Positions 18,166 through 36,513 of a stretch of DNA of 64,000 nt are shown here, one piece after another. Position 1 is the first letter of the stretch. Each line of letters starts with the position of its first letter. The position numbers and the translations under genes are program-made. Source of the DNA: an uncultured Bdellovibrionales bacterium (GTDB lineage Bacteria; Bdellovibrionota; UBA1018; CAIPTA01); assembly GCA_964416595.1 (NCBI GenBank), contig CAYQES010000003.1, positions 1,419-65,418 on the forward strand, written 5' to 3'. The notes beneath the pieces were generated by a model that was not told where the DNA came from, did not search any database, and saw only the letters and a program-made list of their open reading frames with translations.

Positions 18166-18921
18166 ATGAACACAGACTATGTTGCCTGCCTAATTAATGA
18201 ATACGTGGCCCGCAAAGCACTCAATAACAGTTATTCCGAGCGCGCTTTTGCCAAAAATCTTGGCGTATCACCTGGGTTTCTTAAACTGCTGTTTCAAAAA
18301 AAGAAGCACTTGAGCCCAGCACGTGCCAAAGATTTTTCGAATCGGTTATCGTGGAATGAAAAGAAAAAAAGAATTTTTCTTAAATCTGTTTTGCACACAG
18401 CATCCGCCCGGAGAGGTAGCATTGGTCGAAGCTATAAACGCAAAATCCCTGCAACAGAATTCTTTGAAGTATCCGATTGGTTTTATTTTGCGATCATAGA
18501 ATTTTTAAAAGTGAAAAATGGATCCGTTTCGGAAGAGGAAATGGCTGCCGCGTTTCGCCTAAATAAAACCGAGGTTCGCTTTGCCTTAGATCGATTGCTA
18601 GAATTAAAAGTAGTTCAGAAAAAGAATACTCACACTTATTCTATAGCGGATCATTATGAAATCCCATCTACCTCCTCAGAGGCAATACGAAAATACCACC
18701 GACAAACGCTGAATAAAGCAATAGAGGCTATTGATTCACAATCTTTTACAAAACGCGATTTTAGAGCCTTAACATTAGCGTTCGATTCTCAGCGCGTAGA
18801 TGAAGTAAAAAAATTCATTGAAAATTTTGTAAGTGCTTTTGACAAAAAATTTTCTGCAGAAAATTTGGACAGTGTTTATCAATTAAATGTGGCGTTCTTT
18901 CGCCACGATAAGGAGAAGTAA
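18166..18921 (+). CDS. TIGR02147-like family protein (second paralog)
   Basis: Same N-terminal pattern as 5166..6095 (Y...L...Y.........S.R.FAK.LGVSPGFLKLL...KK.LS). Confidence 0.5.
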   Translation: MNTDYVACLINEYVARKALNNSYSERAFAKNLGVSPGFLKLLFQKKKHLSPARAKDFSNRLSWNEKKKRIFLKSVLHTASARRGSIGRSYKRKIPATEFFEVSDWFYFAIIEFLKVKNGSVSEEEMAAAFRLNKTEVRFALDRLLELKVVQKKNTHTYSIADHYEIPSTSSEAIRKYHRQTLNKAIEAIDSQSFTKRDFRALTLAFDSQRVDEVKKFIENFVSAFDKKFSAENLDSVYQLNVAFFRHDKEK

Positions 18922-19782
18922 ATGGTACAGTTAATACAAATTATTCTTTGCGGATTACTTTCAATGCCCACATGGGCCGATGATGGCGGCACAGTTGGCA
19001 ATGGGGGCGATCACAGCGCCATGGAATTCGTGGCTTATGGTTACGATCTTTACGACTATTTTCAACAGCACGGCGTGGGCTCATTGCCAATAAAATCCAA
19101 TAAATTCCTAGAAATACTACAATCCACGCGAGTGGAAACAGTGGATGAATTAAAACTCAACGGTGCAACACTTGATGCCGTTAACTATCCGGATAAGAGG
19201 CTTATTCAAATCGATCGGGATCGTTGGCTCACACTACGGCATCAAACAAATGCAGCGATGACCCTCGTTTTGCACGAATACCTTTGGATCATGGGTATTG
19301 ATGATTCTGAATATAAGCTGTCCCATCTTTTCTGGAACCGAATTACGGCCAGGAAAGCCACGAGCAAGGATTTTTCTAAAGGATTTGTCTGTACGTATGG
19401 GGCAGAAATCTCTTTGCTCGAGCAAATAAAGTTCACCAAAATGGAATCTGGTTACAAAGTAGAAGTACGACACTTTTCTGATGGCAAGTTCGTTAGAGGC
19501 TACGCTACCGAAATGCTCTCCTGCCAGATTTCGCCTTTTGATGGCCGCGTAGTGGAATGTGAAAAAATGATGGGATCTAAGCGAGTGGCTTATTTCTCCA
19601 GCGGAATTTCTTGGTCACGCGGCCTTTCCATAAAAGGCCCTCACGAATCCAACTGGTTTAGAAGCCAACTTAGCAGCGTGGAGCAAGATAAATCTTACTC
19701 TTATCCCGGCTCACGATGGAAAGCCGGCACCAGCTTATCCTTCGATTTTGCCTTGGAAAATTGTGTGGATGTTTTTTATTGA
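18922..19782 (+). CDS. secreted hypothetical protein (VGNGGD ... LHEYLW motifs); paralog-like to 6092..7336
   Basis: Signal peptide. Starts 1 nt after the TIGR02147-like gene stop. Confidence 0.55.
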   Translation: MVQLIQIILCGLLSMPTWADDGGTVGNGGDHSAMEFVAYGYDLYDYFQQHGVGSLPIKSNKFLEILQSTRVETVDELKLNGATLDAVNYPDKRLIQIDRDRWLTLRHQTNAAMTLVLHEYLWIMGIDDSEYKLSHLFWNRITARKATSKDFSKGFVCTYGAEISLLEQIKFTKMESGYKVEVRHFSDGKFVRGYATEMLSCQISPFDGRVVECEKMMGSKRVAYFSSGISWSRGLSIKGPHESNWFRSQLSSVEQDKSYSYPGSRWKAGTSLSFDFALENCVDVFY

Positions 19783-19889: not shown

Positions 19890-20672
19890 CTACTTTTCAA
19901 AGCGTAGAATCGCCTTTGCTCCCGTTACTCTACCTTTCAAGCTAGGCAGATACTCCGCTTCCGCCAGAAACTGCTTCAGCAGCGCGGCGCCCTTCAAAGT
20001 TGGATTCTTGCGCATAAAGGCCGCAAGCTTACCAGCCGCCACAGCCATTCCAAACCCATCCGAAAGGAAAGAAACGCGACGCTCTCCATCCACGGGAGCG
20101 CTCAAGTCTACTCCCGGAACCGCCAATCTTACTAAAGGTCCGTAAGAAGCAAAATCCGCTAGGCCCGTGAGCTCAGAATTTAGAATCGTCACAAATAATA
20201 TATTTCTCGCCGCGCATTTTGTGAAAAATGGGCTGAGCGTATAGCCAATGCTACCTAACGTGACCAAAAAAGCGGTTTCTGTTTTTTCCGCCATCCTGGT
20301 GCACATTTCCTCAACGCCATCGCCGCTCAGTGGCGCCAGCACAATGGCTGAATCCCGACTCGCAATATCTATGGCCGTATACACATCAGCAAGTGAAGCA
20401 TTTCCTCCCTCCTGAAGAACTTGGATTGTCTGGGCGGATTGTGCGCCGTTTTTCCAAGAAAAATAGAGAACACCTGTGGTGAAATCTGAGAAATTGTTTC
20501 CAGGCACGAGTGCCACATGATTCTTCACCACTTCTTGCACAAAGGGCATTTGCTGATTTCCGGTTCCAAGAAGCATAGCCAGCTCGTAAATCGTTTCAGC
20601 TTTTGCGCCAGCCGCGCACAAGAAAGAAAGAAAACAGATCGAAAATATTCGTAAGCTCATTAAATTTTTCAT
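19890..20672 (-). CDS. secreted hypothetical protein
   Basis: Signal peptide (MKNLMSLRIFSICFLSFLCAAGAKA) and a strong RBS GAGAGG before this Met; the ORF track extends 17 codons upstream. Confidence 0.55.
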   Translation of the reverse strand: MKNLMSLRIFSICFLSFLCAAGAKAETIYELAMLLGTGNQQMPFVQEVVKNHVALVPGNNFSDFTTGVLYFSWKNGAQSAQTIQVLQEGGNASLADVYTAIDIASRDSAIVLAPLSGDGVEEMCTRMAEKTETAFLVTLGSIGYTLSPFFTKCAARNILFVTILNSELTGLADFASYGPLVRLAVPGVDLSAPVDGERRVSFLSDGFGMAVAAGKLAAFMRKNPTLKGAALLKQFLAEAEYLPSLKGRVTGAKAILRFEK

Positions 20673-20723
20673 AATTACCTCTCTAAAATTTGTTTTGTAT
20701 TGCTGAAATTGGAATAGGTGCAT

Positions 20724-22085
20724 CTATCGGCCACCATTAGAAAGTTCAAGTAGGCGTTCCACAGCCCGAGCTAAGGGTTGCTCGCTGGCTGCGGCTATCT
20801 TCGCCGCTTTTTGCCAAGTCTGCGGCACGGAACTTACACCGTCCCATACGGAATCATCCTCTCTTGATTTGAGCCAAGCATCTCCTTGCGAAGAAGCTTT
20901 GGCGCCACGAACCGGCACCCAAAGAAAATCGGGGTGTAAGCTGCCATGCCATTCACCGCCTATGATATTGTCGTCTCTATCCAGCTCCAGATCGTAAGTG
21001 TAGTTCACAGCGCGATAGATATCGTTTTCAGGACCATCCGTTAGCAACTCGCTTGGCTCATCCTCAGTTACATAGGTAACTGACATAACAACTTTGACCA
21101 CGTATTCAGTGTTGGGCGAGCGATGTTCTGCGTAGGCATCATTTTTTAGGTCGCGCAGCCTTACCTTCATTTGAGAAAGCTTGTCCCCACTCTTATCCGT
21201 ATTCGGATTGATATACCTGTACTGGTAGCCAAAGACTGGCTGATTCCAAACTTCATACCCAGCGCTGGCATCCATCACAAAACTGCGCTTGTTAACACCG
21301 ATTTGATTTACGACAGAAAGATGCCAAGTTGCCGGATTAGTATCAAAACAATCTGGTCTCGTTTCACGCATGCCATCATCTCGTTCAGGTTTTTTTTCGT
21401 TGCAACGCCCACCAATAAATTTCGTGCGACCCGAGCCATTCGCCCAAAGGAGTGTGGATAAGGCTTTTAGATCGGAGGGAGTAAACGTAATGCTGCGACC
21501 ATCCGGAGCCTTAACATTCACAGCGCGAGAAGGCCTGTCCAACATAAACGATGCCGCTGCCCAGCCATGGCAAAGCCCGAACCAGGTTTCTACTTTTCCT
21601 TCCGCGTCTGCATAGGGAGCGCCCGCGTAGATCATCTTTTTTGTTAAGGTGAAGGAGGAATCTCCCATGAGTAGGTCATACTTTTCCGCAGGCGACATCT
21701 CCTCAACGCCTCCTCTTCCTAAATTCTGGATTAGGTAATCGTAGTTATACTTCCAAATCATTGCGCCATTATAGTTTGGGTCGTTATACCGATTGGCGAT
21801 TTGGCCCGCGTACGTTGGCCAATATGAATCTGTCCAAGGGGAGATTGCCAACTCCGCTTTCAGTAGCCCCTGCTTTTCCATTTCTGCAAGATTCGTATAA
21901 ACAAGTTTGTCCACCAAGTTGGCGGCTTGATCGTTTAGATCCGGGGCGATTGTCGGAAAACTTGGAGCCGCGTGTGATTTTACCCAAGCTCTGATTTTTT
22001 CTCGATAGGCATCCGTTTGTTCATTAGCGAAGGCATTTGGGACACTAAGACTCAAGATCAATAGGAATCGGATAAACTTTCTCAT
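20724..22085 (-). CDS. secreted hypothetical protein, possible Cys-His hydrolase
   Basis: Signal peptide. GLCHGWAAAS faintly resembles a papain/transglutaminase-like catalytic Cys context, and ...EWHGSLHPDF lies near the C-terminus. No firm family. Confidence 0.55.
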   Translation of the reverse strand: MRKFIRFLLILSLSVPNAFANEQTDAYREKIRAWVKSHAAPSFPTIAPDLNDQAANLVDKLVYTNLAEMEKQGLLKAELAISPWTDSYWPTYAGQIANRYNDPNYNGAMIWKYNYDYLIQNLGRGGVEEMSPAEKYDLLMGDSSFTLTKKMIYAGAPYADAEGKVETWFGLCHGWAAASFMLDRPSRAVNVKAPDGRSITFTPSDLKALSTLLWANGSGRTKFIGGRCNEKKPERDDGMRETRPDCFDTNPATWHLSVVNQIGVNKRSFVMDASAGYEVWNQPVFGYQYRYINPNTDKSGDKLSQMKVRLRDLKNDAYAEHRSPNTEYVVKVVMSVTYVTEDEPSELLTDGPENDIYRAVNYTYDLELDRDDNIIGGEWHGSLHPDFLWVPVRGAKASSQGDAWLKSREDDSVWDGVSSVPQTWQKAAKIAAASEQPLARAVERLLELSNGGR

Positions 22086-22156
22086 GGAACCCCCTGTTTG
22101 CGTGTTTTCGAGTTGCTGCTCGCCACATACGCAAACATGGGGCCAAGTTGCCTTGA

Positions 22157-23278
22157 TTAGTACGCGAGGCGCTTAAGGCGTATCAATTCAACTTGCTCAT
22201 CCTCTGGAATATTCGTGCCCGCGCTACCGGAAAATCCTTCAGCAACCGCGAATTCCAAAGCCCCGTAACAAGATTTGGCTACTCTTGTTTTCGGATACTC
22301 AGTAATACATGCCTTTAAATACATTTCGCCAAAGCGAAAAAAGAGACTGCTAGAAATTCTCGAATAAATCTGTCCGAGATAGAGCAGAGCCTCCCCTTTA
22401 TTGGGAGATTTATCGCCTGGCGCTTCCAGCACCCGCTGGAGGAGACTCGATGCACGTAAGCGGCGCACATGGAAACTGCGCTCGAGCTCAGAAACAAGAG
22501 AGAAGTCGTCGTGACGAAGGATTTTCTTTGCTTTAGCGAGGAGGGCTGTTTCTGTCATTTTGTCGTCTTTCTCGGGAGATTCTTTTGCCCATTTCGAAAA
22601 TTCATCCGACCAAGCTTTTATTTCCTGCTTCAGATAGATGGGAAATTCATTTTTTTGAGAAATTTTTTGAAAATACTTAGCCCCACCGGCAGGATCTTCA
22701 GAAACTCGAGCATAGTAAACCGCTAGCGCTAATAGAGCTTTACGCAGATTCCACTGCCCCACTTGATTGGCAGGATACGCATCAATGATTCCCTCAAATA
22801 CAGCAACACCTTTTTTGAATTGGCGCGTGGCAAAAAAATAGTCCGCCTTGTCGATATCGGCTATTTCCTTCGTATCCAAATCAGGCCATGCAAAATCTGC
22901 TGCCTTCTTTCTGGTGTGGCAGGCAATGCACATTTGAAAAGAACTTTGTAACATATATCGAGCAAATGGTTTCGCGCCTTCGTTGAAGGTCCGATTGGCG
23001 TCCTTTATATGCTGTTGAATCATGGATAAATTCACCTTCAAGGCCGGGTCATTAGAAAATGTCCCTTTACCGAGGTGAGTTAGGTGAGAATCAAGTGAGT
23101 TCAGCGATTTTTTTATCGCCGCCTCGTTGGCGGGTGCTAGAAAATCTGCATCGGTGAGGAGATATTTTTGCAGAGCTGAAATCTCGGTGGCTAGGGCATG
23201 CATATCTGGGCGCGGATCTTTATCATTCGCAAGAGCGGAGTTAAACACTAGAGCAACTAAAAAGATAAAAAGCTTCAT
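22157..23278 (-). CDS. secreted protein with a single CxxCH heme-binding motif and TPR-like helical repeats
   Basis: Signal peptide (MKLFIFLVALVFNSALA) and a CIACH motif. Confidence 0.5.
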   Translation of the reverse strand: MKLFIFLVALVFNSALANDKDPRPDMHALATEISALQKYLLTDADFLAPANEAAIKKSLNSLDSHLTHLGKGTFSNDPALKVNLSMIQQHIKDANRTFNEGAKPFARYMLQSSFQMCIACHTRKKAADFAWPDLDTKEIADIDKADYFFATRQFKKGVAVFEGIIDAYPANQVGQWNLRKALLALAVYYARVSEDPAGGAKYFQKISQKNEFPIYLKQEIKAWSDEFSKWAKESPEKDDKMTETALLAKAKKILRHDDFSLVSELERSFHVRRLRASSLLQRVLEAPGDKSPNKGEALLYLGQIYSRISSSLFFRFGEMYLKACITEYPKTRVAKSCYGALEFAVAEGFSGSAGTNIPEDEQVELIRLKRLAY

Positions 23279-23718
23279 TTTTCCTCCATTGTAATTTTCT
23301 TCCAAACGTACAAAAGCTCTTCTTCGCCTAGGGCTAAACGCAAAACCCAGTTACCATTTCGAAATGTAAAAGGCGTTCTCGTTTCACGACCATTCTGCAT
23401 ATCTGGATCTCGGCTGCATCCATAACTGTTATTAGGATCCACCCAATACACCCGATCAATCAAATGGCCATTTTCCACTCTATAGTACCCGCGCCGCTCG
23501 CAATGTTCATTTTGGCCTTCATGCCACCAGTAGAGCCGGCTCTGGCCATTGGGAAGAAATTCGTAGCGTAGACGAAGAGTTGCTCCGGGCCCTTCCGGCA
23601 TTTCTTGGCCTTTGTAGATTTTCATAAAATAGGCCCATCGGCCCACGATAGAATCTGATGCCCTCGCGCTGCTAGAAAATATGGATAGAACCACAACTAC
23701 CAGTGCGAGGAATCTCAT
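23275..23718 (-). CDS. small secreted hypothetical protein (possible lipocalin-like / protease partner)
   Basis: Signal peptide. The start overlaps the stop of the upstream M4 protease gene (TAATG). Confidence 0.5.
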   Translation of the reverse strand: MRFLALVVVVLSIFSSSARASDSIVGRWAYFMKIYKGQEMPEGPGATLRLRYEFLPNGQSRLYWWHEGQNEHCERRGYYRVENGHLIDRVYWVDPNNSYGCSRDPDMQNGRETRTPFTFRNGNWVLRLALGEEELLYVWKKITMEEK

Positions 23719-25103
23719 TATTGCACCTTCCAGCCGCGGGCACGAGCGAACTGCAGTACCGCCTGCGTTTGGTCATTTGTTAGAAGCCCTTGCGCAGCGT
23801 TGGCGAGCGCGCCAGGAAAATCATCGAATTTTCCGCCCTTTCCGAGTCGGACTAATGTGCGAAACGCTAGCTTAGCGGTGAGTTCCGTTCCTAATGTAGC
23901 TTTCATATCCCAGAAGGTGGCCCCCACGATCGTGCCGTTTTGGTAAACTCCTGGCGCAAAGTCTTTATAGGCCATGAGGCGATTGTCGAGCGTTCTTCGG
24001 TAAGGGCCCTTCAAATAAGAAGCTTCCCCCATCCGAGGATTGTCGAGAATCAGGGCAGTGAAGAGATCAGCAAATCCCTCATTGAACGCTCCGCCTTCCC
24101 CTTCCGATGGCAGGCCAGTGTAAGCATCGATCACAGCGTGAATTCCTTCGTGAATTAGAATGGATGGGTCGCGAATCATGTCTTTATAAATTTGGCCATC
24201 TCCTGTTCCGAGGTAGATGGTGTTTTGGTGATAAAAAGCAGCATTGCTTACGCCTCCCTCGCCCACATGCAAGCGAACATTGATCGGATGATCCAGTTCT
24301 ATTCCTAGGCGCTCCTTTAGCCAGCGATATCCCTGGTCGATTGTGAAATACGCTTGGCCGAGATCAAAGCGGCGATCATCTTGAGGAAAGAAAAAAGTAA
24401 GCTCAGGCGACCATACCTTTAAGTCCAAGGCCGAAATAACGTGCAATAACCGCCCCGTCATGGTGCCATCGCCCGTAAGATCACGTAGTATCTCTTCTTG
24501 CACACCGTACTTTGGACCCTTGGGGAACACGACAGCTCTTCCATCGGCGCCATCCCAATCCAACTTTCCACTTTCTAAAACACTACTATCTTTAGCTATG
24601 AGAACATAGCGGAGTTGGTCGCCAGTGGTAGATAGATACTCTACTCTCCAATACGGAATCCATTCTCCCTCTTCATTTTTGCGCACTTCAAGTGAAGGAG
24701 GAAAAACCCTAGAAGCTGTTTTCAATTCAGACAAAGTTTTCATCGCTCGCTCTAGCGCATCGGAAAGATTTTTTTCAGAAGCACTTAAGCTTAGCTTGAC
24801 TGGTAAATTATCCATCACTGCGCCAGCGCTGTAAGTAACTTCTCCGTCTGGATCAAGGATGGTTTGTTTCCAGGTTCCGGCAACATGGGCTAAACCAATG
24901 GATTGGCCCTCTCGAGAAACAAATTCTCCCACTCCCTTTAGAATATTCTTATTGTGTTTGGGTGCCTCGGCAATGAGTTCGCCCGTTAGGAGCTGAGGGC
25001 GCTGAGTTCCCGGGCGGGCGTGCCGAAACTTACGAAGTTGCTCCTTCGCAAACCCCTGCACAGGTAATAGAATAAAAAATATGGCTGCTACAATTCGCTT
25101 CAT
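23718..25103 (-). CDS. M4 (thermolysin-like) zinc metalloprotease, secreted
   Basis: HEGIHAVID (HExxH) plus the downstream NEGFADLF Glu ligand motif. Signal peptide. Confidence 0.8.
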   Translation of the reverse strand: MKRIVAAIFFILLPVQGFAKEQLRKFRHARPGTQRPQLLTGELIAEAPKHNKNILKGVGEFVSREGQSIGLAHVAGTWKQTILDPDGEVTYSAGAVMDNLPVKLSLSASEKNLSDALERAMKTLSELKTASRVFPPSLEVRKNEEGEWIPYWRVEYLSTTGDQLRYVLIAKDSSVLESGKLDWDGADGRAVVFPKGPKYGVQEEILRDLTGDGTMTGRLLHVISALDLKVWSPELTFFFPQDDRRFDLGQAYFTIDQGYRWLKERLGIELDHPINVRLHVGEGGVSNAAFYHQNTIYLGTGDGQIYKDMIRDPSILIHEGIHAVIDAYTGLPSEGEGGAFNEGFADLFTALILDNPRMGEASYLKGPYRRTLDNRLMAYKDFAPGVYQNGTIVGATFWDMKATLGTELTAKLAFRTLVRLGKGGKFDDFPGALANAAQGLLTNDQTQAVLQFARARGWKVQ

Positions 25104-25170
25104 AAATCCTCCCAAAGAAAAAAACCTCCCCGGATCTGGTCCAGGGAGGGAAAAGACTTGTGCTCAATTT

Positions 25171-25566
25171 CTATTGCTCGATAGTGAGCCGCTTTTCCAT
25201 GTATGTGCCGTCGCCATTCATGAAATGGATTTGATGCGTGCCCGTAGCTAGCTTTCCAAGTTGCACTTCCCGGTGAAAGGGAATAATCACTGTGAGGCAC
25301 AGACCTTCGGTTACAATCGCGTTTGTGGTCACTTCGTGGAGCAATGGGCCCACATGTTCTACTTTTACATCTTTTAGCTTGTAGCAGCTGTGTGGGAACC
25401 AACCGTTTACTACCACAAATGCATCGGACCCAGAGTCGAATCCATTGGGAATATAAACATCGTTGATGGGAACAACCTTCTCGTGTTTGTCTCCCTCCTT
25501 GGCTTCTGCGCCGAAAGAGAAAGTAAGAGTCATTGCAATTGCTGTAACCATCAGAAAATTTTTCAT
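25171..25566 (-). CDS. small secreted hypothetical protein
   Basis: Signal peptide MKNFLMVTAIAMTLTFSFGAEA. RBS GGGAG. Confidence 0.45.
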   Translation of the reverse strand: MKNFLMVTAIAMTLTFSFGAEAKEGDKHEKVVPINDVYIPNGFDSGSDAFVVVNGWFPHSCYKLKDVKVEHVGPLLHEVTTNAIVTEGLCLTVIIPFHREVQLGKLATGTHQIHFMNGDGTYMEKRLTIEQ

Positions 25567-25718
25567 ATCCATCACTCCCATGTGTTTGTTGATGACCTTT
25601 CGGTCTTGCACACGCTAGAGCAACTGATGTGCCACAGTTATTTTCCGTGAGCACCGCATTCTTGAACCTCTGAATCGATAGCTGGCTGTGACAGGAGACA
25701 CTCCTGTAATTTTTTGAG

Positions 25719-26324
25719 CTATTTTTTCTCATCTTCATTTTCCAGCTGTAGATTGCCAGAGACCGCCGCCAAAACTTCGGACACCTTTACTGCAAAGGAG
25801 CGGTTGTTGCGGATATGAATGAAACGAGGGTGCTTAGACCAGAGACGAAATGTTTCTTGGTCAAGGCGCCTTGCCTCTTCCCAATCTTCCTTACGATTTG
25901 GATTTTTAGCTTTATGAACGAGATAGTCACGCTCTGCGGCACTTTCTAAATAAATAACGCATCCATACCTATTTAACTCCGCCTCCAAACTGGTGTTCAA
26001 ACTTCTAAAAAATGCATCGGAACCTTCTGGCCAATAGGCTGCTCCATCCACGCTTGCGCGATCTAAAATAAGTGCCTTATCAGGAAATTGTGCAGAAAAA
26101 GCCGCTTCTAAGCTGTGTTGAGTGGCAAAAATCGCCCTTTGGATGGCGCGCTGCGCCTCTAAAGGAGAAAAACGCGGAAATCCCCCCGAAAAAAGAAGGG
26201 ATGCCGCCTCAGGAACATTCACAACACTATGCTGATAGGCCCTTGCAATCATTTCGGCAAGCGTTGTCTTGCCCGCACATGGCCCCCCCGTAAGCACGAT
26301 TTTGAAATCTTTAGAATTGCTCAT
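25719..26324 (-). CDS. P-loop NTPase (AAA_28 / NadR-kinase-like)
   Basis: Walker A GGPCAGKTTLAE, ~200 aa. Confidence 0.55.
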   Translation of the reverse strand: MSNSKDFKIVLTGGPCAGKTTLAEMIARAYQHSVVNVPEAASLLFSGGFPRFSPLEAQRAIQRAIFATQHSLEAAFSAQFPDKALILDRASVDGAAYWPEGSDAFFRSLNTSLEAELNRYGCVIYLESAAERDYLVHKAKNPNRKEDWEEARRLDQETFRLWSKHPRFIHIRNNRSFAVKVSEVLAAVSGNLQLENEDEKK

Positions 26325-27343
26325 GGAACCCTCACCTCGTTCTGAAGTGGTTGCCCGCGTTCAAACTCACTTAAGTTAGTAAGAGTAGTTGAAACGATTC
26401 CTCTCAATGCCTCTTCCGTTAGAAACGCTTGATGGGCCGTAATCAATACGTTGGGAAATGTCATCAACCGGGCAAGTATATCATCCTGAAGCACCGAGCA
26501 CGAAAGATCTTGGAAAAACACATTTTCTTCTTCCTCGTAAACATCAAGGCCCGCGGCGCCGATCTTACCGGCCTTCAGAGCGTCGATCATTGCCTTTGTA
26601 TCAATCAATCCGCCTCTGCCCGTGTTAATCAACATCACCCCATGCTTCATTTTAGCGATAGCATTGGCATTAATAATATGATGAGAGTTTTGCGTAAGAG
26701 GCAAGTGAAGACTGATTATATCCGACTGCTCAAGAAGCTGATCCAGAGGTACATACAAGGCCCCCATAGCCATCAGCCGTTGATCCTCCAGCAAATCATA
26801 GACTAAGACCTTACATCCAAAACCTTTCATGATTTTGGCCAACGCGCCGCCAATTCTACCTGCACCAATAATACCTACTGTTTTTCCGTGTAAATCAAAT
26901 CCCACCAAGCCATCCAAGGAAAAATTTAGCTCCCTCACTCTAGCTACGGCCCTACAGAGCTTCCGATTCAGTGCCAGCATTAATCCAACCGCATGTTCAG
27001 CAATGGCATAGGGAGAATATGCCGGCACCCGCACCACCTTAATTCCTAAAGCCGCGGCCTCCTTAATATCAACATGATTAAAGCCGGCAGAACGGAGGGC
27101 AATTACTCCCACGCCCGCTTCCTTCAACTTTTTTAATACTACGGCATTTACCTGATCATGGGCAAATACACACACAGCTGGATAGCCAGAGGCCAAATGA
27201 GCTGTCTGCTCCGTAAGCCGCAGATCAAGAAAGGTAAGATCGTGGCCGTGCTGTTCGTTCAGCGCATCAAAGAATGGCTTCTCGAACTTGTGGGTATCAA
27301 AGACTACGGCTTTCATAGTGTAAATTCCTTTGCTGTTACCCAT
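26321..27343 (-). CDS. D-isomer-specific 2-hydroxyacid dehydrogenase (D-lactate dehydrogenase-like)
   Basis: NAD-binding GIIGAGRIGGALA plus catalytic R/E/H region (LINTGRGGLID ... DVYEEE). Confidence 0.8.
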   Translation of the reverse strand: MGNSKGIYTMKAVVFDTHKFEKPFFDALNEQHGHDLTFLDLRLTEQTAHLASGYPAVCVFAHDQVNAVVLKKLKEAGVGVIALRSAGFNHVDIKEAAALGIKVVRVPAYSPYAIAEHAVGLMLALNRKLCRAVARVRELNFSLDGLVGFDLHGKTVGIIGAGRIGGALAKIMKGFGCKVLVYDLLEDQRLMAMGALYVPLDQLLEQSDIISLHLPLTQNSHHIINANAIAKMKHGVMLINTGRGGLIDTKAMIDALKAGKIGAAGLDVYEEEENVFFQDLSCSVLQDDILARLMTFPNVLITAHQAFLTEEALRGIVSTTLTNLSEFERGQPLQNEVRVP

Positions 27344-27560
27344 TCAGAAAGTGGGCCAAGTTTATGGGACACAATTGAAATAAGCATAAACCAATTCGGG
27401 ACGTATTCATCCTCGCTTGAGCCAGAATGTCTCACTTTAAATTACGCTCTTCCCCAAATCGAAATTATACGTGCGTTCCATTTACTTCCTTGGCCCGATT
27501 TCTGCTTTATTCTCAAAGGAAGGGTGTAAAGCCCAAAGCAAATTTGCCAGGAGTGAACCA

Positions 27561-27989
27561 ATGAAAGCGATCCCACAAGTTGAAAAATTTATGACCCCCA
27601 TGCCTCACACAATCAATTCGGGCATGCCGATCAAAACGGCAAAAGCAATGATGAGAAAATATGGGGTTCGTCACCTACCCGTCCAGGTAGCCGGGCATCT
27701 TGTTGGAGTTGTAACCGACCGAGATCTAAAATTAGCCCTCTCATTTAAAAACACGGAAAATCTATTTGTTGACGATGTAATGACGCCCGACCCCTATGCA
27801 GTACACCCCACCACTAAATTCGGTGAAGTTGTAAAAACCATGGCAGAGCATAAGTACGGTTGCGCTATTGTGCAGAATTTCGATGGAAAGGTAGTAGGGA
27901 TTTTCACCGCCACTGACGGCTTACGCGCTTTTGGAAAAATGCTTGAGAAAACATCCAAGGTGACGCGTAGAAAAGGAGTAAAAAAATGA
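27561..27989 (+). CDS. CBS-pair domain protein
   Basis: Two CBS motifs (MTPMPHTINSGMPI..., VDDVMTPDPYAVHP...). Confidence 0.7.
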   Translation: MKAIPQVEKFMTPMPHTINSGMPIKTAKAMMRKYGVRHLPVQVAGHLVGVVTDRDLKLALSFKNTENLFVDDVMTPDPYAVHPTTKFGEVVKTMAEHKYGCAIVQNFDGKVVGIFTATDGLRAFGKMLEKTSKVTRRKGVKK

Positions 27990-28360
27990 ATGCCTTTGTA
28001 ATCTGGATTGATCGTGAACATGCCAAGATTTTTCCAGTCTCTGAAGAAAGATTGGAGAAAAAGACACTGCTTGCGAAGCAAAGTGAACACCACACCCATA
28101 AACTCGACAACTTAGATCATCAGAGACAAGAAAACTGGCTTTTTGAGGAGTCAGTAGCGTATATGCGAAATGCTGAAAAGATTTTAGTCTTAGGGCCTGG
28201 CGTGGCCAAGCATCACTTTATAACCTATCTTATGGAGCAACACCCCGCCTTAGCTAGGAAAGTCACGGACTGTGAAACAGTGGACCACCCTAGCGACGCG
28301 CAAATTATAGCCTATGCAAAAAAATATTTTCAGATAGGTGTCTTGGCCGCCACGAAATAG
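27986..28360 (+). CDS. hypothetical protein, possibly host-attachment-protein (Hap/PF10116-like) family
   Basis: N-terminal FVIWIDREHAKIF pattern resembles Hap-family N-termini. The start overlaps the CBS gene stop (ATGA). Confidence 0.4.
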   Translation: MNAFVIWIDREHAKIFPVSEERLEKKTLLAKQSEHHTHKLDNLDHQRQENWLFEESVAYMRNAEKILVLGPGVAKHHFITYLMEQHPALARKVTDCETVDHPSDAQIIAYAKKYFQIGVLAATK

Positions 28361-28378
28361 AGGCAAGAAAGCAAAAAA

Positions 28379-29506
28379 TCATACCCCCTTGGGCAGAGTA
28401 AGCAAAAATTCAGCACCCTGCCCCTCTTTACTTTTCGCTTCAATAGTTCCACCCCAGGACTCCACGATGCGGTAACTAGTAGCCAATCCAAGCCCTGTGC
28501 CACTTCCAATATCCTTCGTGGTGAAGAATGGCTTAAAAAGATTTTTCATATTGGCTTCAGAAATTCCACAGCCTGAATCGAGTAGAGATACAAGCCAAGA
28601 TGTTCCCGCGTCGCGCACAGAAATAGTGATGAAATGCCTATTTTTTCCGCCCTTTCTGGCGGTATCGATTGCGTGAACAGAATTCACTAAAAGATTCAAT
28701 AGAACCTGATGAAGAGGTCCAGATTCAGCTTTCACCAATATCTGATTGCCAGTTGGTAGTTCGTTACGAAGATCAATTTCGTGTTTTCTGAACTCATGCC
28801 CCATGAGTTCTAGCACTTCGTTAAGCACCTCATTAAAAGAAATTGTTTCTACCCGCTTCGTGCCATCACCCCTTGCCAAATTCAAAAGGGAACGAATCAG
28901 TTTAGACACCCGATCGATCTGAGCAATGATCACATCTGCATTTTTCTTGATATCGGGATCCTTTCTAAGTTTCATTTCTAGATATTCAGCTCGACCACGA
29001 ATAACTCCCAGCGGAGTTCCAATCTCATGGGCCAAACTTGAGGCAAGCAATCCCACGGACGCCATCCTGTCTTGCACCAGGATCTGTGCTTCTCGATCTA
29101 AAATTGCTTGCACAGATTTCGCGCGGTGAATCGCATACCGAATAGCGCGCTCGAGTAAAAAAGAATTAACCTGATCTTTTACTAAATAGTCGGCTGCCCC
29201 GAGTCGCATTGCTTCAAGATCCACCTCCTGCTCACCATAACCGGTAAGCAGAATAATCGGCACCTTGCATCCTTCGGAGATCGTTTCCCGAAGCAAATCC
29301 AGGCCCGTTCTCCCTCCGAGCCTAAAATCCATGAAACAAACATCAAACTCGCCCGTTAGGAGTGAAGATTTTCCCGCATCAAAGGAAGGGGCCCACTCCA
29401 CCTTAAATTTCTGCCCACGCACCTGAGAAAGCAGATCGCGAAACATGAGATGATCGTCTTCATCATCGTCGATAAGAAGAATTCTGATTGGCTGGCTGGA
29501 CATCAT
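28379..29506 (-). CDS. hybrid response-regulator receiver + histidine kinase
   Basis: N-terminal REC (ILLIDDDEDD...) followed by HisKA H-box SSLAHEIGTPL and HATPase_c G-boxes. Confidence 0.8.
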   Translation of the reverse strand: MMSSQPIRILLIDDDEDDHLMFRDLLSQVRGQKFKVEWAPSFDAGKSSLLTGEFDVCFMDFRLGGRTGLDLLRETISEGCKVPIILLTGYGEQEVDLEAMRLGAADYLVKDQVNSFLLERAIRYAIHRAKSVQAILDREAQILVQDRMASVGLLASSLAHEIGTPLGVIRGRAEYLEMKLRKDPDIKKNADVIIAQIDRVSKLIRSLLNLARGDGTKRVETISFNEVLNEVLELMGHEFRKHEIDLRNELPTGNQILVKAESGPLHQVLLNLLVNSVHAIDTARKGGKNRHFITISVRDAGTSWLVSLLDSGCGISEANMKNLFKPFFTTKDIGSGTGLGLATSYRIVESWGGTIEAKSKEGQGAEFLLTLPKGV

Positions 29507-29982
29507 TTTAATTTTGCTCTTTCGTGGCTTATCATTTCAGGAGGCAGCTCTACGATTTCAAACCAATAGCGGCCAAGATCGCGGGTAATAGACACAAGCG
29601 AGTCGAATGTAACCGGTTTTGTAATAAATGAATTCACGCCAAGGTTGTAGGTTCGATACACATCTTCCTCGGCTTTAGACGTAGTCAACACCACGATTGG
29701 AATTCCCCGCAATTCTGGATCACTCTTTATTTCTTTGAGCGCTTCCCTGCCGTCTTTACGAGGCATATTTAAATCTAGGAGAATCAATCCAGGCCGAGGG
29801 CTTTGGGCGCCGGTGTACTTTCCTTTTCTCCTCAAGAAATCCATTAAATCCTCTCCGTCCTCCACAAAATGTAAATCATTTGCCAAACGATTTTCCCGAA
29901 GAGCGTCTTGGATCATCATGCGATCATCTGCATCATCATCGGCAACGAGAATGGTGATTGGTCTAATATTTTTAACGCTCAT
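29503..29982 (-). CDS. single-domain response regulator (CheY-like receiver)
   Basis: REC domain (ILVADDDADD ... LLDLNMPRKDG). 4-nt overlaps with the genes on both sides. Confidence 0.8.
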   Translation of the reverse strand: MSVKNIRPITILVADDDADDRMMIQDALRENRLANDLHFVEDGEDLMDFLRRKGKYTGAQSPRPGLILLDLNMPRKDGREALKEIKSDPELRGIPIVVLTTSKAEEDVYRTYNLGVNSFITKPVTFDSLVSITRDLGRYWFEIVELPPEMISHERAKLK

Positions 29983-31118
29983 AAATGCTCCTTAAAATGA
30001 TGGGCCGGCAAGGAAACGGTGAAACAAGCGCCACTCCCCGGTATGCTCTTTGCTGTGATAGAGCCACCATGGCGTTCCACAATTCGGCGACAAACCGCCA
30101 AACCAACTCCTGTGCCCTCGTATTCTTGCCTTCCATGCAGCCTTTGAAAGATAGTAAAAATTCGGTCCAGGTACTTCTCATCGAACCCTATTCCATTATC
30201 CTGGATGGAAACGAAACACACTCCCTTTTCCAGGCGCGCTCGAACTGTCACCACGGGAGCGATTCCTTTCTGGTGAAACTTTAAAGCATTCGCGATTAAA
30301 TTCTGGAAAAGTTGGCGCATCTGAGAGGGATCGGCATCGATCTGGGGCAGCTTCTGAACTTCTACCTTCCCACCAACCTGTTCGATGCGCAGTTCAAGAT
30401 CCGATAACACATCAGCTACGATCTGGTTCAAATCAGTAGGTTCAAATGGCTTGGCTTGAGTGGAAACGCGCGAGTATGTGAGCAAATCGTCAATCAGTTT
30501 CCGCATGCGATTGGCGGAAGTAAGCATACGACTTAAATAATCGCGGCCTTCATCCGGAATCTCATTTGCAAATCGGGTATTGAGCCGATCTCCAAACGTC
30601 TGAATCTTCCGTAGTGGCTCCTGTAGATCATGGGCAGCGATCGACGCAAAATCGGTGAGTTCGCGGTTACTCTTTTCAAGCCGATCCGCATATACGCGCA
30701 ACTGCTCTTCCGCAGCCTTCCTCTGAGTGATCTCGAAACGGATAGAAACGTATTGATAGGGCTTTCCGCCGCCATCAGCAAACGGAACGATCGTAGTGTT
30801 AACCCAATAAAACGAACCATCCTTCGCCCGATTCCGAATCTCCCCCTCCCACACCTGAGCACTAGAAATGGTTTTCCACATTTCAATGAAAAACTCTTTG
30901 CTGTGGTAACCAGAATTGATGATGCGATGGTTTTTGCCGATTAGCTCTTCCCGCGGATACTTGGAAATTTCGCAAAACTTATCGTTCACATGAATGATAT
31001 TACCGGCGCGATCCGTGATCGCCACAATGGCCGACTTATCCAACGCATGGCGCACGAGCTCAAGCTCACGCTCCATGGATACAGAAGCACCCTGACTTTG
31101 CTTTGATTTTTCGGTCAT
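29979..31118 (-). CDS. PAS-domain sensor histidine kinase
   Basis: PAS region followed by H-box AAHDLQEPLRKI and HATPase_c (GTGVGLAVCRRIVERHGG). Confidence 0.8.
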   Translation of the reverse strand: MTEKSKQSQGASVSMERELELVRHALDKSAIVAITDRAGNIIHVNDKFCEISKYPREELIGKNHRIINSGYHSKEFFIEMWKTISSAQVWEGEIRNRAKDGSFYWVNTTIVPFADGGGKPYQYVSIRFEITQRKAAEEQLRVYADRLEKSNRELTDFASIAAHDLQEPLRKIQTFGDRLNTRFANEIPDEGRDYLSRMLTSANRMRKLIDDLLTYSRVSTQAKPFEPTDLNQIVADVLSDLELRIEQVGGKVEVQKLPQIDADPSQMRQLFQNLIANALKFHQKGIAPVVTVRARLEKGVCFVSIQDNGIGFDEKYLDRIFTIFQRLHGRQEYEGTGVGLAVCRRIVERHGGSITAKSIPGSGACFTVSLPAHHFKEHL

Positions 31119-31200
31119 TTCCGCATAAACACTACAAAATTAGTGCCAAAAGTGCCATAGGAACCCAGCCAGACCCACCGGGGCTTTGAGCTTTAGAGAT

Positions 31201-31216
31201 TGGCATGCGTCCTGCT
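31201..31216 (+). promoter_or_regulatory. candidate sigma-54 (-24/-12) promoter TGGCAT-N6-TGCT
   Basis: The GG and GC dinucleotides are 12 nt apart, ~90 nt upstream of the sigma-54 activator gene start. Confidence 0.3.
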
Positions 31217-31306
31217 CTTTAGGCCGCTAAAGCGCTAAAAACGCCCCTTCCCATGAGACTTCCTGTCCCACGGCGAGGCGTATTGGCCAACGGGAAAGGA
31301 TTTTGG

Positions 31307-32755
31307 ATGAAAGACCCAAAAGGCAGAATTATTGTAGTGGATGATGAGCAGGAAATGCGTGCCCTGCTTGAAGACTTTTTCCGGGGTGAAGGCTACGAGG
31401 TGCATAGTTTTCCCCTCGCCACAACCGCTCTAGAAGCCCTAGGCGCCGGCGGAACTCATGCTGCGGACCGAGCCGATGGCGATATTGATGTGATCATTAC
31501 TGACATCAAAATGCCACAAATGGATGGGCTAGAATTCACTACAAAACTTCAAGCGCTCAGACCCGAAATTCCCGTATTAGTAGCCACCGCATTTGGAAGT
31601 ATCGAAACAGCCATTCAGGCGATGCGGCGCGGTGCGTTTCATTATGTGGTGAAACCGTTCAAGCTTACCGAAATGAGCGTGAACGTTGAACGGGCCCTAG
31701 AACATCGGAAGCTCCAACGGGATAACACCGCCCTTCGTAAAGAAGTAAAGCGCTCCTGGACCCTGGGGAATGTGATCGGCAAAAGCGATGGCATGAAGGA
31801 GATCTTCGATCTCGTGGGGCGGGTTTCCAAAGCTACCGCAAACATCTTAATCACGGGCGAAAGTGGAACGGGAAAAGAAATGATAGCTCGAGCCATTCAT
31901 CAGAGTGGCCCCCGAAGTAACAAGCCGTTTGTGGCGATCAATTGTACTGCCATTCCGGAAACATTGCTTGAATCAGAACTGTTTGGCCACGCCAAAGGAT
32001 CTTTCACCGGCGCCATACAACGAAAACGCGGCCTGTTTGAGGAGGCCGAAGGCGGCACCCTCTTTTTGGACGAAATCGGTGACATGAACGTGCAACTTCA
32101 ATCGAAGCTCTTGCGAGTAATCCAGGAGCGCAGGGTACGTGCCGTTGGGGAAAACATAGATCGGCCCGTGGATGTTCGCATCATTGCAGCCACTCACAAA
32201 GATCTAAAAGCGGCCATTAAGGACGGACGCTTTCGCGAAGATCTTTTCTATCGCCTGAGTGTAATTCCTATTGCCATTCCCCCTCTTCGCAACAGGCGAG
32301 AAGATATTCCGCCATTAGCTGAGTATTTCCTCCAGAAATACAGCGCCACGAATAATGCCCAAATAAAAGGCTTCTCAAAACGTGCCATTGCAAAACTAAT
32401 GAACCTAAAATGGGAAGGAAACGTTCGTGAACTTGAAAACGTGATCGAACGCGCCGTTGTGCTCTGCACGGGCACTTTGATTGACGAGGCAGATATCCCC
32501 TCTGGCAGCCCGGAGAATGCGGAAGTTTTTTTCTCCGGTGCCATTTCAGACTTTCCCACGATTAGCCAACTCGAAGAGCGTTATATCAAAGTTGTGCTAG
32601 AAAAAACTGCCGGAAGAAAAGATAAAGCCGCACAAATTCTGGGCATGAATCGCAGAACACTATATCGAAAAGAACGAGAGTATGGGTTGGTACCGGCGGA
32701 TTCCCCCGAAGAAGAAGATATGGCAGCAGCCGCGCACCTAGAAAATGCGGAATAG
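31307..32755 (+). CDS. sigma-54-dependent Fis-family response regulator (NtrC-like)
   Basis: REC + AAA+ sigma-54 interaction domain (GESGTGKE, GAFTGA-like loop, ELFGH) + C-terminal HTH. Confidence 0.85.
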   Translation: MKDPKGRIIVVDDEQEMRALLEDFFRGEGYEVHSFPLATTALEALGAGGTHAADRADGDIDVIITDIKMPQMDGLEFTTKLQALRPEIPVLVATAFGSIETAIQAMRRGAFHYVVKPFKLTEMSVNVERALEHRKLQRDNTALRKEVKRSWTLGNVIGKSDGMKEIFDLVGRVSKATANILITGESGTGKEMIARAIHQSGPRSNKPFVAINCTAIPETLLESELFGHAKGSFTGAIQRKRGLFEEAEGGTLFLDEIGDMNVQLQSKLLRVIQERRVRAVGENIDRPVDVRIIAATHKDLKAAIKDGRFREDLFYRLSVIPIAIPPLRNRREDIPPLAEYFLQKYSATNNAQIKGFSKRAIAKLMNLKWEGNVRELENVIERAVVLCTGTLIDEADIPSGSPENAEVFFSGAISDFPTISQLEERYIKVVLEKTAGRKDKAAQILGMNRRTLYRKEREYGLVPADSPEEEDMAAAAHLENAE

Positions 32756-32802
32756 GGCTGTAGTTGGCTCGGAACCAGTAGCTATTGCTACAAGGAAATT
32801 CC

Positions 32803-33531
32803 ATGAAGTCCCATGATCTTCTCCTATTGGTCTTTTCGTTTTTCTCAGAGGCCCTAGGAACGATTAGCGGATTTGGCTCTTCTACTTTTTTTGTGCCACT
32901 AGCTGTAAGCATTGAATCATTTGGATTTGTGCTCGTGCTAACCGCGATCTTGCACTGTTTCGGAAATATTTCTAAAATTTATCTCTTCCGAGAAAATTTT
33001 CCCAAAATACTCATTCTTCAATTGGGCTTGCCATCCGTTGTGTTTACAGGGATCGGCGCACTTTTAAGTAGCAGATTTTCTAGTGATCTTTTAATGCGAC
33101 TACTGGGAATGGTCTTAGTGATAATTTCCGCTGTCAAAATCCTACAGAAAAGCCGCATCACTCATCTCCACTCAAAGGCATCTATAGTACTCTGCGGAGT
33201 TTCCGGATTTTTAACCGGCTTAGTGGGCACTGGTGGCGCCATTCGAGGGATGGCGCTCACCATGCTGCAATTGGAAAAACATTCCTTTATTGTGCTTTCA
33301 GCCGGAATTGACCTTGGTGGCGATCTTTTGCGAGCGGGTATTTACCTTTCGCAAGGAAAGATGGATTGGAACCAATGGTTTTATATACCGCTACTGGGAG
33401 TAACGGCAGCACTTGGAGCTATAACAGGCAAGCGCATTCTGACGCATATTAACCAAAAACAATTTGAGAAAATAGTCGCAGTTTTCGTGTTCTTCAGCGG
33501 CCTGACTATGATTTTCGGTATTTACCATTAA
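32803..33531 (+). CDS. TauE/SafE-family (sulfite-exporter-like) membrane protein
   Basis: ~240 aa with 7-8 TM segments and a repeated G-rich TM motif. Confidence 0.55.
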   Translation: MKSHDLLLLVFSFFSEALGTISGFGSSTFFVPLAVSIESFGFVLVLTAILHCFGNISKIYLFRENFPKILILQLGLPSVVFTGIGALLSSRFSSDLLMRLLGMVLVIISAVKILQKSRITHLHSKASIVLCGVSGFLTGLVGTGGAIRGMALTMLQLEKHSFIVLSAGIDLGGDLLRAGIYLSQGKMDWNQWFYIPLLGVTAALGAITGKRILTHINQKQFEKIVAVFVFFSGLTMIFGIYH

Positions 33532-33542
33532 TAATTCCAAAT

Positions 33543-33941
33543 TTATGGCACTACTTTTCGTATCAATTTTCCCAGGCGCTTCCATGTTTTCTTATCAAAA
33601 CTAAAATCAACCTCTATGCCCACGTAAGAATCGTTCCATTGCTTAAATTGGCCCGTGTAGTACAAAGGTGAATTTATCTTTTCAACAGTGTGAAGCCGGA
33701 GCTCAAGCGGCCGATCATTCTCGCGCAGCAAACGAACTCGAAGGTGAGGAGGTGTAGTTTGGCTTCCACCAACTTTTCTTACCTCCACCTTCTTCTGTTG
33801 TGGATGAACAGAAACGGAAAATTGCCCTTGTTCAGAGCTAATCACATCACTCCACTCCTTTTGGCTACTTTCAGTAGCCTGGACAATCTCAACCGTCATT
33901 AAGAGAACTAGAAACAATACTACAGAATACACAGCTTTCAT
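33543..33941 (-). CDS. small secreted hypothetical protein
   Basis: Signal peptide MKAVYSVVLFLVLLMTVEIVQA. Confidence 0.45.
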   Translation of the reverse strand: MKAVYSVVLFLVLLMTVEIVQATESSQKEWSDVISSEQGQFSVSVHPQQKKVEVRKVGGSQTTPPHLRVRLLRENDRPLELRLHTVEKINSPLYYTGQFKQWNDSYVGIEVDFSFDKKTWKRLGKLIRKVVP

Positions 33942-33989
33942 TTGACCTCCCCAATTTCTGACCCCGCCTTACGATCCAAAATCAATAAT

Positions 33990-35357: not shown

Positions 35358-35367
35358 GCGTACACCC

Positions 35368-35586
35368 CTAGGCGCCAATCCTCATATGACCCATATAATC
35401 GTTACCTTCGAAAGCGATCTCAAATTTTTGGATCGTGCTAAAGTTCTTCGAACGCAAGAAAATTTCGAGCTCATCTTTGAGTTGCTTTAGGTAAGCCACT
35501 TCGAAGTAGCTCGGACCTTTTGCAAAATCCAGATTGCCAGTTTCTACTGCAGCGTGTTCTTCCATATTCATTTTCAATGCCCGCAT
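35368..35586 (-). CDS. small hypothetical protein
   Basis: 72-aa ORF between the CBS and MBL genes on the same strand. Confidence 0.3.
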   Translation of the reverse strand: MRALKMNMEEHAAVETGNLDFAKGPSYFEVAYLKQLKDELEIFLRSKNFSTIQKFEIAFEGNDYMGHMRIGA

Positions 35587-35649
35587 GATTTTTCCCCTTA
35601 TATTGTTTGAGTTCCGACCTTCCTATTTCAAAACCCATGCCAATCCATT

Positions 35650-36138: not shown

Positions 36139-36513
36139 GAGACCCCCCATTAATATACCTAGGTTAACGCAAGATCGAGGCCACCCTCCCAAGCAGCAAA
36201 AACATTTATCAATGAACTCCCAAGGGACAATACGTCTCATAAATTGCGCAGTAGGAGCCATAACAACCCCTCTTCGTTCAAATAGCTATAATTGGGCTAA
36301 GGATCTGATGGCACTCTCATTGCAATTTCTTTTGGTGAAATTACCTACGGGCAGGTGGTCGCTAATGATGAGAACAAGCATTAATTTTACAATAAGAATC
36401 GCCACACTTGTTTCTGCCCTACTGGTGCTTCCTTTAGTCGTAAATGTGGCGGCCACCATGCTGCTATGGGCATTAAACTGACAATGGTTAAACAGAACAA
36501 TATAAGGAGCAAT

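Follow-up and report, generated by a model that had tools for sequence, protein, structure and literature searches.

A Bdellovibrionota-specific gene cassette for secreted proteins, with a divergent thermolysin-like peptidase, a candidate inhibitor, and a predicted cytochrome-TPR companion

In the staphostatin and AprI operons, the gene for a secreted peptidase is accompanied by a gene for a small inhibitor that folds as an eight-stranded beta-barrel; the staphostatin gene follows its protease gene and its product is cytoplasmic, and AprI is periplasmic. Predators of the Bdellovibrio type attract interest as living antibiotics, and most of the many hydrolases that they secrete have yet to be characterised. 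Staphostatin-staphopain and AprI/Inh-serralysin have been named as peptidase/inhibitor systems, and the closest described case for an M4 peptidase is potempin E, a nanomolar inhibitor of forsilysin of Tannerella forsythia, with which it is co-transcribed and into whose S1′ pocket it is thought to insert a hydrophobic loop residue; potempins have 98 to 132 residues and are encoded immediately upstream of the peptidase genes (PMC9890683). Here, we describe a locus with an M4-like peptidase gene in a 64,000-nt stretch of DNA from an uncultured Bdellovibrionales bacterium (GenBank assembly GCA_964416595.1, contig CAYQES010000003.1, positions 1,419 to 65,418 of the forward strand; hereafter, the window). 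The peptidase gene, B, is one of six co-oriented minus-strand genes, A to F (Table 1), which an earlier note on this DNA had likened to a hydrolytic secretome locus.

Using profiles built from the window proteins, we scanned 74 loci fetched from species-representative genomes. Gene A was found directly upstream of B in 42 of the 46 Bdellovibrionota loci, three of the four misses being contig ends, and C directly downstream of B in 40 of them; most of the cases in which A or C was missing near B were contig ends. Both were absent from 32 more distant M4-like loci (Myxococcota and others), and thus the selected unit is A-B-C. Since about 40 other Bdellovibrionota loci have the three genes in this order on one strand, the gene arrangement is not a matter of chance; an ORF11_beta gene (the annotation given to A homologs), a protease gene, and a small open reading frame (ORF) follow each other in this order near protease homologs of 72%, 56%, 50%, 34%, and 31% identity. 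D adjoins the cassette in 6 distinct loci, the window counted, and lies within 8 kb without adjoining it in 6 more (12 loci within 8 kb of B in total), its position being variable and sometimes upstream or on the opposite strand. The conserved unit is A-B-C, with D as a recurrent but mobile companion and E and F as lineage-specific add-ons. Gene A, which the earlier note had left as a peripheral neighbour, is in fact the best-conserved partner of the protease. With moderate confidence, we favour the reading that the locus is a sigma-54-controlled cassette of secreted proteins specific to Bdellovibrionota, with A-B-C as its core, C inhibiting B, and D as a frequent companion.

The six ORFs were confirmed in the ORF listing of the window, and a purine-rich ribosome-binding site precedes each of them. 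The stop codon of B overlaps the start codon of C by 1 nt (TAATG), and that of C overlaps the start of D by 4 nt (ATGA); because of these overlapping boundaries and the conserved synteny, B, C, and D look co-translated. The B-C-D operon of the earlier note holds to that extent, but, judging from the sequence, the transcription unit most likely starts further upstream, at A, from a sigma-54 promoter. Sec-type signal peptides were recognized in all six products, with a K/R-containing N terminus, a hydrophobic core of 10 to 13 residues, and an AXA-type site, the predicted cleavage sites from A to F being AEA/KE, GFA/KE, ARA/SD, ALA/ND, AFA/NE, and AKA/ET. The calls were made with a hand-made heuristic (a 10-residue Kyte-Doolittle mean), which is distinct from SignalP; the core means were 2.2 to 3.5 in A to F and 1.3 in two cytoplasmic neighbours that served as controls and lack signal features. 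Alignments of homologs showed variable hydrophobic N termini ahead of a conserved core, as signal peptides would give. These results bear out the coordinates, the strand, and the predicted export of the six products as first described, and the heuristic found in every product the signal peptide whose absence the earlier note had named as telling against it.

In a search of PDB sequences, B matched aureolysin and thermolysin with E values of 3e-8 to 7e-8 over residues 211 to 446. It carries the motifs HEGIH...NEGFAD, in which H318, E319, H322, N341, E342, and D346 are invariant among 47 homologs, and H318, E319, H322, E342, and D346 are its zinc and catalytic residues by alignment. With the thermolysin family M4, B thus shares the HExxH motif and the Glu of NExxxD as zinc ligands as well as the Asp equivalent to thermolysin Asp170. 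In contrast to thermolysin, aureolysin, and pseudolysin, it has a Tyr in the place of His231 (Tyr387, invariant in the 47 homologs; GVHxNSG is replaced by GVYQNG) and a Ser in that of Tyr157 (Ser333), and its clade is restricted to Bdellovibrionota: all 92 homologs with a source name came from Bdellovibrionota, Bacteriovoracia, or Oligoflexia-type metagenome-assembled genomes (MAGs) or from Bdellovibrio bacteriovorus, in which the ortholog of strain HD100 is CAE79010.1, annotated as 'putative metalloprotease'. B scored below the Pfam gathering thresholds for Peptidase_M4 and Peptidase_M4_C (17.9 versus 22.4 bits and 19.5 versus 24.4 bits), and some of its homologs bear PF01447 or PF02868 in precomputed annotation. 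The region aligning with mature thermolysin is preceded by about 155 residues that, from their length, may form a prodomain; no FTP or PepSY propeptide was matched by Pfam in residues 20 to 213 even at E≤10. The thermolysin-like character assigned in the earlier note is therefore supported by the match and the conserved zinc motifs, and by its sequence B is a divergent thermolysin-like gluzincin and not a textbook M4 enzyme.

Homologs of A carry PF27154 (ORF11_beta) in precomputed annotation. A itself had no Pfam match in the version searched, which does not contain PF27154, and the origin of the name ORF11_beta could not be traced in the literature. An exhaustive phmmer search yielded 767 cluster representatives of the family, many of which are proteins of about 240 aa with two tandem A domains (tandem-A proteins). 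The family alignment has an invariant pair, Cys61/Cys90, and the pattern of conserved residues suggests a protein rich in beta-strand. A profile of A against PDB sequences returned nothing at E≤10. Homology between A and C was considered and rejected, as hhalign aligned the signal peptides only.

C had no Pfam, NCBIfam, or PDB sequence match, and its profile gave noise against PDB sequences. Across 16 homologs, G26xW28, Cys73, Cys101, D104, D106, and M107 are invariant and P105 is nearly so, the last four residues making up a DPDM loop. An AlphaFold model of C is a nine-strand barrel (predicted local distance difference test score [pLDDT], 88), and its top 50 Foldseek matches are ligand binders of the lipocalin, FABP, and nitrophorin types (calycins). 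Potempin E is not among these 50, so that the link between C and potempin E is one of fold and not of family; no sequence homology between the two is detectable. According to the model, C resembles the potempins in being a small beta-barrel, and the B/C overlap and the synteny in 40 of 46 loci predict co-transcription with the peptidase gene. C differs from the potempins, whose genes lie upstream and whose products are lipoproteins of the outer membrane: its gene is downstream, and it bears a type-I signal peptide with no lipobox or, in Bdellovibrio, no signal peptide at all. As an exported protein, C of the window is akin to the periplasmic AprI; the targets of staphostatin and AprI belong to other families (C47 and M10B) than the M4-like B, and the Pfam family Inh (PF02974) did not match C.

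The distribution of C is informative about its role. It occurs strictly with B, and none of the tandem-A loci has it, not even the three with a papain-family peptidase that are described below. Because C goes only with the M4-like enzyme, we reasoned that C, not A, is the class-specific partner, and we regard it as the probable cognate inhibitor or latency partner of B. The idea of a protease with a coupled small partner was a reasonable guess of the earlier note.

In the clade of the genus Bdellovibrio, the C homolog begins at the first barrel strand (MNSLIGIWLF...), has no signal peptide, and keeps both Cys residues; such genes were seen in L003 (7353-7721), L016, L022, L023, L029, L030, L033, L037, L039, L041, L043, and L044, and the protease of this clade is a lipoprotein by its signal (e.g., LIFIGC). 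By analogy, a C protein of this kind would fit a cytoplasmic guard like staphostatin, whose gene likewise follows that of the protease, and would not fit a periplasmic complex.

The sigma-54 type −24/−12 promoter upstream of A, TGGCACatcagTTGC, matches TGGCAC-N5-TTGC exactly, and two exact matches occur in the 64-kb window versus 0.16 expected. At 40 to 80 nt upstream of A, the motif was found with at least 9 of 10 positions matching in 11 of 39 related loci (background, 0.9%), and at least 8 of 10 positions matched upstream of A in 20 of the 39 (background, 4.8%). Two further elements lie upstream of the promoter. The 12-mer ATGCGGTGCTCA, which recurs at the equivalent position in L001, L005, L014, and L015, is a possible regulator or IHF-type site. 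The palindrome ACAGGAGTGTCTCCTGT includes TGTCTC, a sequence that recurs at about −55 to −70 in L001, L005, L009, L013, L014, and L015, and may be an activator-binding site. An NtrC-type response regulator and a PAS histidine kinase, its candidate sensor, are encoded divergently 5.6 kb upstream of the cassette, and L001, L002, and the P0046 contig have this pair near the cassette as well; the two may control the cassette promoter.

Between A and B lies a terminator-like hairpin with 7 G-C pairs, followed by TTTTTTTCTT (T7). A hairpin of at least 7 bp follows A in 23 of 40 distinct loci (background, 6.9%), with stem sequences that differ between loci, and a hairpin with a T-rich tail does so in 19 of the 40, B. 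bacteriovorus included (background, 1.6%). Other lineages have no hairpin, and there the two genes abut or overlap. As the ribosome-binding site of B follows the hairpin at a distance of only about 20 nt, expression of B, C, and D is most simply explained by read-through, which in turn predicts much more A than B or C; we propose that the hairpin is a partial terminator or attenuator. A search of the region against Rfam gave no match at E≤0.1, and no structured RNA was found.

A smaller stem-loop, GACC-GAAA-GGTC, is located near the predicted 5′ end of the A transcript. Stems of differing sequence (GGCC/GGCC, GTGGC/GCCAC, and GGAAG/CTTCC) occupy the same place in related loci, which suggests compensatory change, and this element may be an mRNA-stabilising hairpin. 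The second exact sigma-54 consensus of the window, TGGCACtctcaTTGC, is followed after about 40 nt by a short hydrophobic ORF (MMRTSINFTIRIATLVSALLVLPL...) that begins near 36365.

We then turned to D, the companion of the core. Its model (pLDDT, 87) has an N-terminal four-helix bundle (residues 23 to 121) that ends at C117xxC120H121, followed by a linker and an all-helical TPR-like domain; a four-helix bundle with CxxCH near its C-terminal end is the hallmark of class II cytochromes. There is exactly one CxxCH in each of 94 D homologs (CIACH in the window), Met26 is invariant in 82 aligned sequences, and a C-terminal pair, Cys324/Cys337, is nearly invariant. After signal cleavage, the Met and the His would stand at mature positions of about 9 and 104, which we take to mirror Met7 and His102 of b562. 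D had no match to Pfam Cytochrom_C_2, and a P460 hit was sub-threshold only. The model suggests a b562/c′-type c-type cytochrome domain fused to a TPR-like domain, with heme attachment predicted. In the earlier note, D had been an exported TPR-like protein with an unusual heme motif: the TPR-like part and the CxxCH stand, and the conservation of the latter in 94 of 94 homologs makes it functional-looking, but it belongs to a predicted cytochrome bundle and is not a stray motif. Compared with class II c-type cytochromes and b562, D adds the fused TPR-like domain of about 230 residues, and its partners are exported A-family proteins and peptidases, not respiratory genes.

These partners extend beyond the cassette. 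In a metagenome scan, which used a 10-sequence subset of the tandem-A proteins and then local profile searches, D-like genes were found within about 3 kb of tandem-A genes in 11 further loci, and sigma-54 regulators or kinases near tandem-A genes in about 9 to 13 loci; B and C were never present in the tandem-A loci scanned. Three of these loci (Table 1) have on one strand, in this order, a D-like gene, a papain-family peptidase gene (PF00112; E, ~1e-40), and two tandem-A genes. In L079 (2414-7636), a tandem-A gene is followed by genes for a D-like lipoprotein (CFHCH), a sigma-54 response regulator, a response regulator, and a PAS kinase, with no peptidase gene; the lipoprotein is a distant homolog of D (hhalign probability, 99.9%) that retains the CxxCH and the Met. 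The A and D families thus travel together, in the company of secreted peptidases of two catalytic classes, which argues that D is functionally linked and not a chance neighbour. It is conceivable, though a long shot, that A-domain proteins, D, and an interchangeable secreted peptidase constitute an undescribed sigma-54-controlled extracytoplasmic module of Bdellovibrionota and relatives, in which the heme in the four-helix bundle of D, as a sensor of redox state or a diatomic gas, would control the processing or release of the abundant A protein by the peptidase. The peptidase accompanying A and D is M4-like, together with C, in some loci and papain-like in others. If this were true, the system would be one of proteolysis switched by heme, with a possible tie to the predatory life cycle.

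The same loci bear on what A does. That A, not C, is the protease inhibitor, made in excess like the potempins, with C as a ligand binder or folding helper, seems improbable to us. A has 131 aa and is encoded upstream of the protease gene, as the potempins are within a similar size range (PMC9890683), the attenuating hairpin after A predicts its excess, and the Foldseek matches of C are all ligand-binding calycins. However, tight-binding inhibitors are normally confined to one peptidase class, whereas the A family is also found near cysteine peptidases of the papain family, and many A genes stand apart from any peptidase gene; moreover, A has no PDB sequence match and is not homologous to C. 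Because its family also accompanies papain-type peptidases, A is better viewed as a substrate, cargo, or co-factor than as an inhibitor.

A further reading takes A for a precursor or structural protein (surface, adhesive, or toxic) that is matured by the peptidase, with C protecting the producer and D an unrelated periplasmic cytochrome that synteny has kept close by. The layout speaks for it: a first gene with an abundant product, then a hairpin, a gene for a processing protease, and one for a protective protein. It resembles that of operons headed by a structural gene, as for lantibiotics or pili, and A-family genes stand beside peptidases of two catalytic classes, as they would for a shared substrate. 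On the other hand, A has no evident cleavable pro-region, its family being conserved from the signal-peptide cleavage site to the C terminus, and D-like genes track the A family through rearrangements and into loci without B or C, which speaks against mere synteny. We give this reading little credence as a whole.

E and F stand apart from the core. E matched PF16683 with 144 bits (E, 6.6e-42; cut-off, 25) and PDB entry 3tw5 with an E value of 9e-30 over about 320 residues, which placed the Cys of GLCHGW on the nucleophile position. An adjacent Cys-His 'CH' is the unusual catalytic motif of GP42-type transglutaminases (PMC10318531), so the Cys context singled out in the earlier note is, by this alignment, catalytic. 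E keeps this motif of GP42 of Phytophthora sojae and its Vibrio relatives (PF16683) and differs from them in its Bdellovibrionota host and its M4-like cassette neighbour; by family, it would be a cross-linking enzyme and not part of a hydrolytic secretome. It adjoins the cassette only in L001, L005, L009, and L015. In two Bacteriovoracaceae MAGs (L065, 2-3108; L070, 1592-4698), a GP42-type transglutaminase gene is divergent from another M4-like gene; the transglutaminase/M4 pairing thus recurs outside the A-B-C cassette. F had no Pfam match. It matched the AK.1 protease in PDB weakly (E, 8e-4) and in its C-terminal half only, and aligned by BLASTP with residues 187 to 240 of subtilisin BPN′. 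The Ser motif reads GFGMA in place of GTSMA and the HGTH His motif is absent; because the nucleophile and the His motif are missing, F is a probable pseudo-enzyme. Its only other known occurrence, in L005 (7350-8123), is 69% identical and also has GFGMA, which suggests selection for a non-catalytic role.

It is on these grounds that we judge it unlikely that the six genes form one coherent hydrolytic secretome island whose enzymes and helpers act jointly on prey. All six products have signal peptides, the genes are co-oriented, the organism is within Bdellovibrionota, and a transglutaminase gene adjoins an M4-like gene in several lineages, the two Bacteriovoracaceae included. However, B is the only credible hydrolase, E cross-links, and F lacks a nucleophile; F recurs in one and E in four of about 45 loci, while the conserved unit is A-B-C; and neither base composition nor repeats mark the region as an island. 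The earlier note thus overstated how far the six genes belong together. An acquired island or a plasmid or mobile origin was considered separately and rejected, there being no PLSDB megablast match, no flanking repeats, and a GC content equal to that of the rest of the window. A search with the six proteins gave no match in PADLOC, so a reading as anti-phage defence is not supported, and no paralogs of A, B, C, D, or E were found elsewhere in the window.

Table 1. Features of the locus and of related loci (window coordinates unless a locus is named)
Feature	Position	Strand	Size	Description
A	25566-25171	−	131 aa	Exported, PF27154-type
B	25103-23718	−	461 aa	Exported divergent thermolysin-like zinc peptidase
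C	23718-23275	−	147 aa	Exported, lipocalin-like beta-barrel predicted by model
D	23278-22157	−	373 aa	Exported, predicted four-helix-bundle c-type cytochrome domain + TPR-like domain
E	22085-20724	−	453 aa	Exported GP42-type transglutaminase (PF16683)
F	20672-19890	−	260 aa	Exported subtilase-like, without nucleophile Ser
Sigma-54 type −24/−12 promoter	25620-25634	−		TGGCACatcagTTGC; 54 nt upstream of A start codon
12-mer	25648-25659	−	12 nt	ATGCGGTGCTCA; 13 nt upstream of −24 element; unique in window
Palindrome	25691-25707	−	17 nt	ACAGGAGTGTCTCCTGT; with TGTCTC; 57-73 nt upstream of promoter
Terminator-like hairpin	25125-25149	−	10 bp	Between A and B; followed by TTTTTTTCTT
5′ stem-loop of A transcript	25594-25605	−		GACC-GAAA-GGTC
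PAS histidine kinase	29979-31118	−		Divergent from sigma-54 regulator gene; candidate sensor
NtrC-type response regulator	31253-32755	+		REC + Sigma54_activat + HTH_8; Pfam E 2e-72
Second exact sigma-54 consensus	36309-36323	+		TGGCACtctcaTTGC
Putative regulator	18166-18921	+		DUF4423/TIGR02147 family; convergent with F
Orphan	18922-19782	+	286 aa	Signal-peptide-like N terminus; convergent with F
D-like/C1 peptidase/tandem-A locus	L093 1247-5562			Without C
D-like/C1 peptidase/tandem-A locus	L112 1-3532			Without C
D-like/C1 peptidase/tandem-A locus	L141 3560-7024			Without C

Of the two plus-strand genes next to F, the orphan matched nothing in Pfam or NCBIfam, and none of the fetched loci encodes a homolog. 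On the other side, the region from 25719 to 36261 encodes an AAA_28 ATPase, a D-2-hydroxyacid dehydrogenase, CBS-domain proteins, a hybrid kinase, a response regulator, the PAS kinase, the sigma-54 regulator, a TauE exporter, and a beta-CASP metallo-beta-lactamase. Most of this gene order is shared with L001, L002, and the P0046 contig, and CBS and beta-CASP genes recur near tandem-A genes.

Taken as a sigma-54-controlled cassette with C as the inhibitor of B, the locus could work as follows. The PAS kinase and the NtrC-type regulator would switch on the sigma-54 promoter; most transcripts would end at the hairpin, leaving A in excess, and read-through would supply the translationally coupled B, C, and D. 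B would be exported as a proenzyme (as a lipoprotein in Bdellovibrio proper), and C would bind it 1:1, keeping it latent or guarding the producer. By analogy with the inhibition of M4 peptidases by potempin E, SMPI, and IMPI, the DPDM loop of C, probably braced by a disulfide, would enter the active-site cleft of B and place its Met in the hydrophobic S1′ pocket. D may hold a Met-His ligated heme c on a b562/c556-type bundle, and by docking a partner with its TPR-like domain it may link the module to redox or gas status. The abundant product would be A, which is more probably a peptidase substrate, cargo, or co-factor than an inhibitor, and the transglutaminase E and the dead subtilase F would be lineage-specific passengers.

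Several observations weigh against this account. It is the anatomy of the locus that was observed, and from this we infer the activities of A to D. Our literature searches found no paper on any of these proteins, and hence no biochemical or expression data; a search for the B. bacteriovorus ortholog, by accession and topic, found nothing usable. The activity of B is only predicted, as the protein lacks the equivalents of His231 and Tyr157 and falls below the M4 cut-offs. The fold modelled for C is generic, with only ligand-binding calycins among the top 50 Foldseek matches, and no sequence-level link connects C with any inhibitor family. In Bdellovibrio, a signal-less C and a lipoprotein B would reside in different compartments and meet only before export. 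The sigma-54 motif was not found upstream of A in B. bacteriovorus, and the hairpin could instead stop all transcription, B being served by an unseen promoter inside A. Finally, D is beside the cassette in only about a quarter of the genomes.

A peptidase with a co-transcribed barrel partner is already known; what is new here is the lineage-specific set of families, the heme-TPR companion, and the sigma-54 wiring. Our analysis defines a phylum-wide cassette with a thermolysin-like enzyme that has Tyr for His, an inhibitor candidate on a lipocalin scaffold as modelled, a predicted cytochrome-TPR fusion of unusual architecture, and a likely sigma-54 two-component switch. Should C prove to be an inhibitor, it would represent a new family of M4 inhibitors, and should D gate the system, heme sensing would be joined to extracellular proteolysis. 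If neither is the case, the locus still provides a well-delimited set of hypothetical proteins that can be better annotated, including the locus of CAE79010.1 in B. bacteriovorus HD100.

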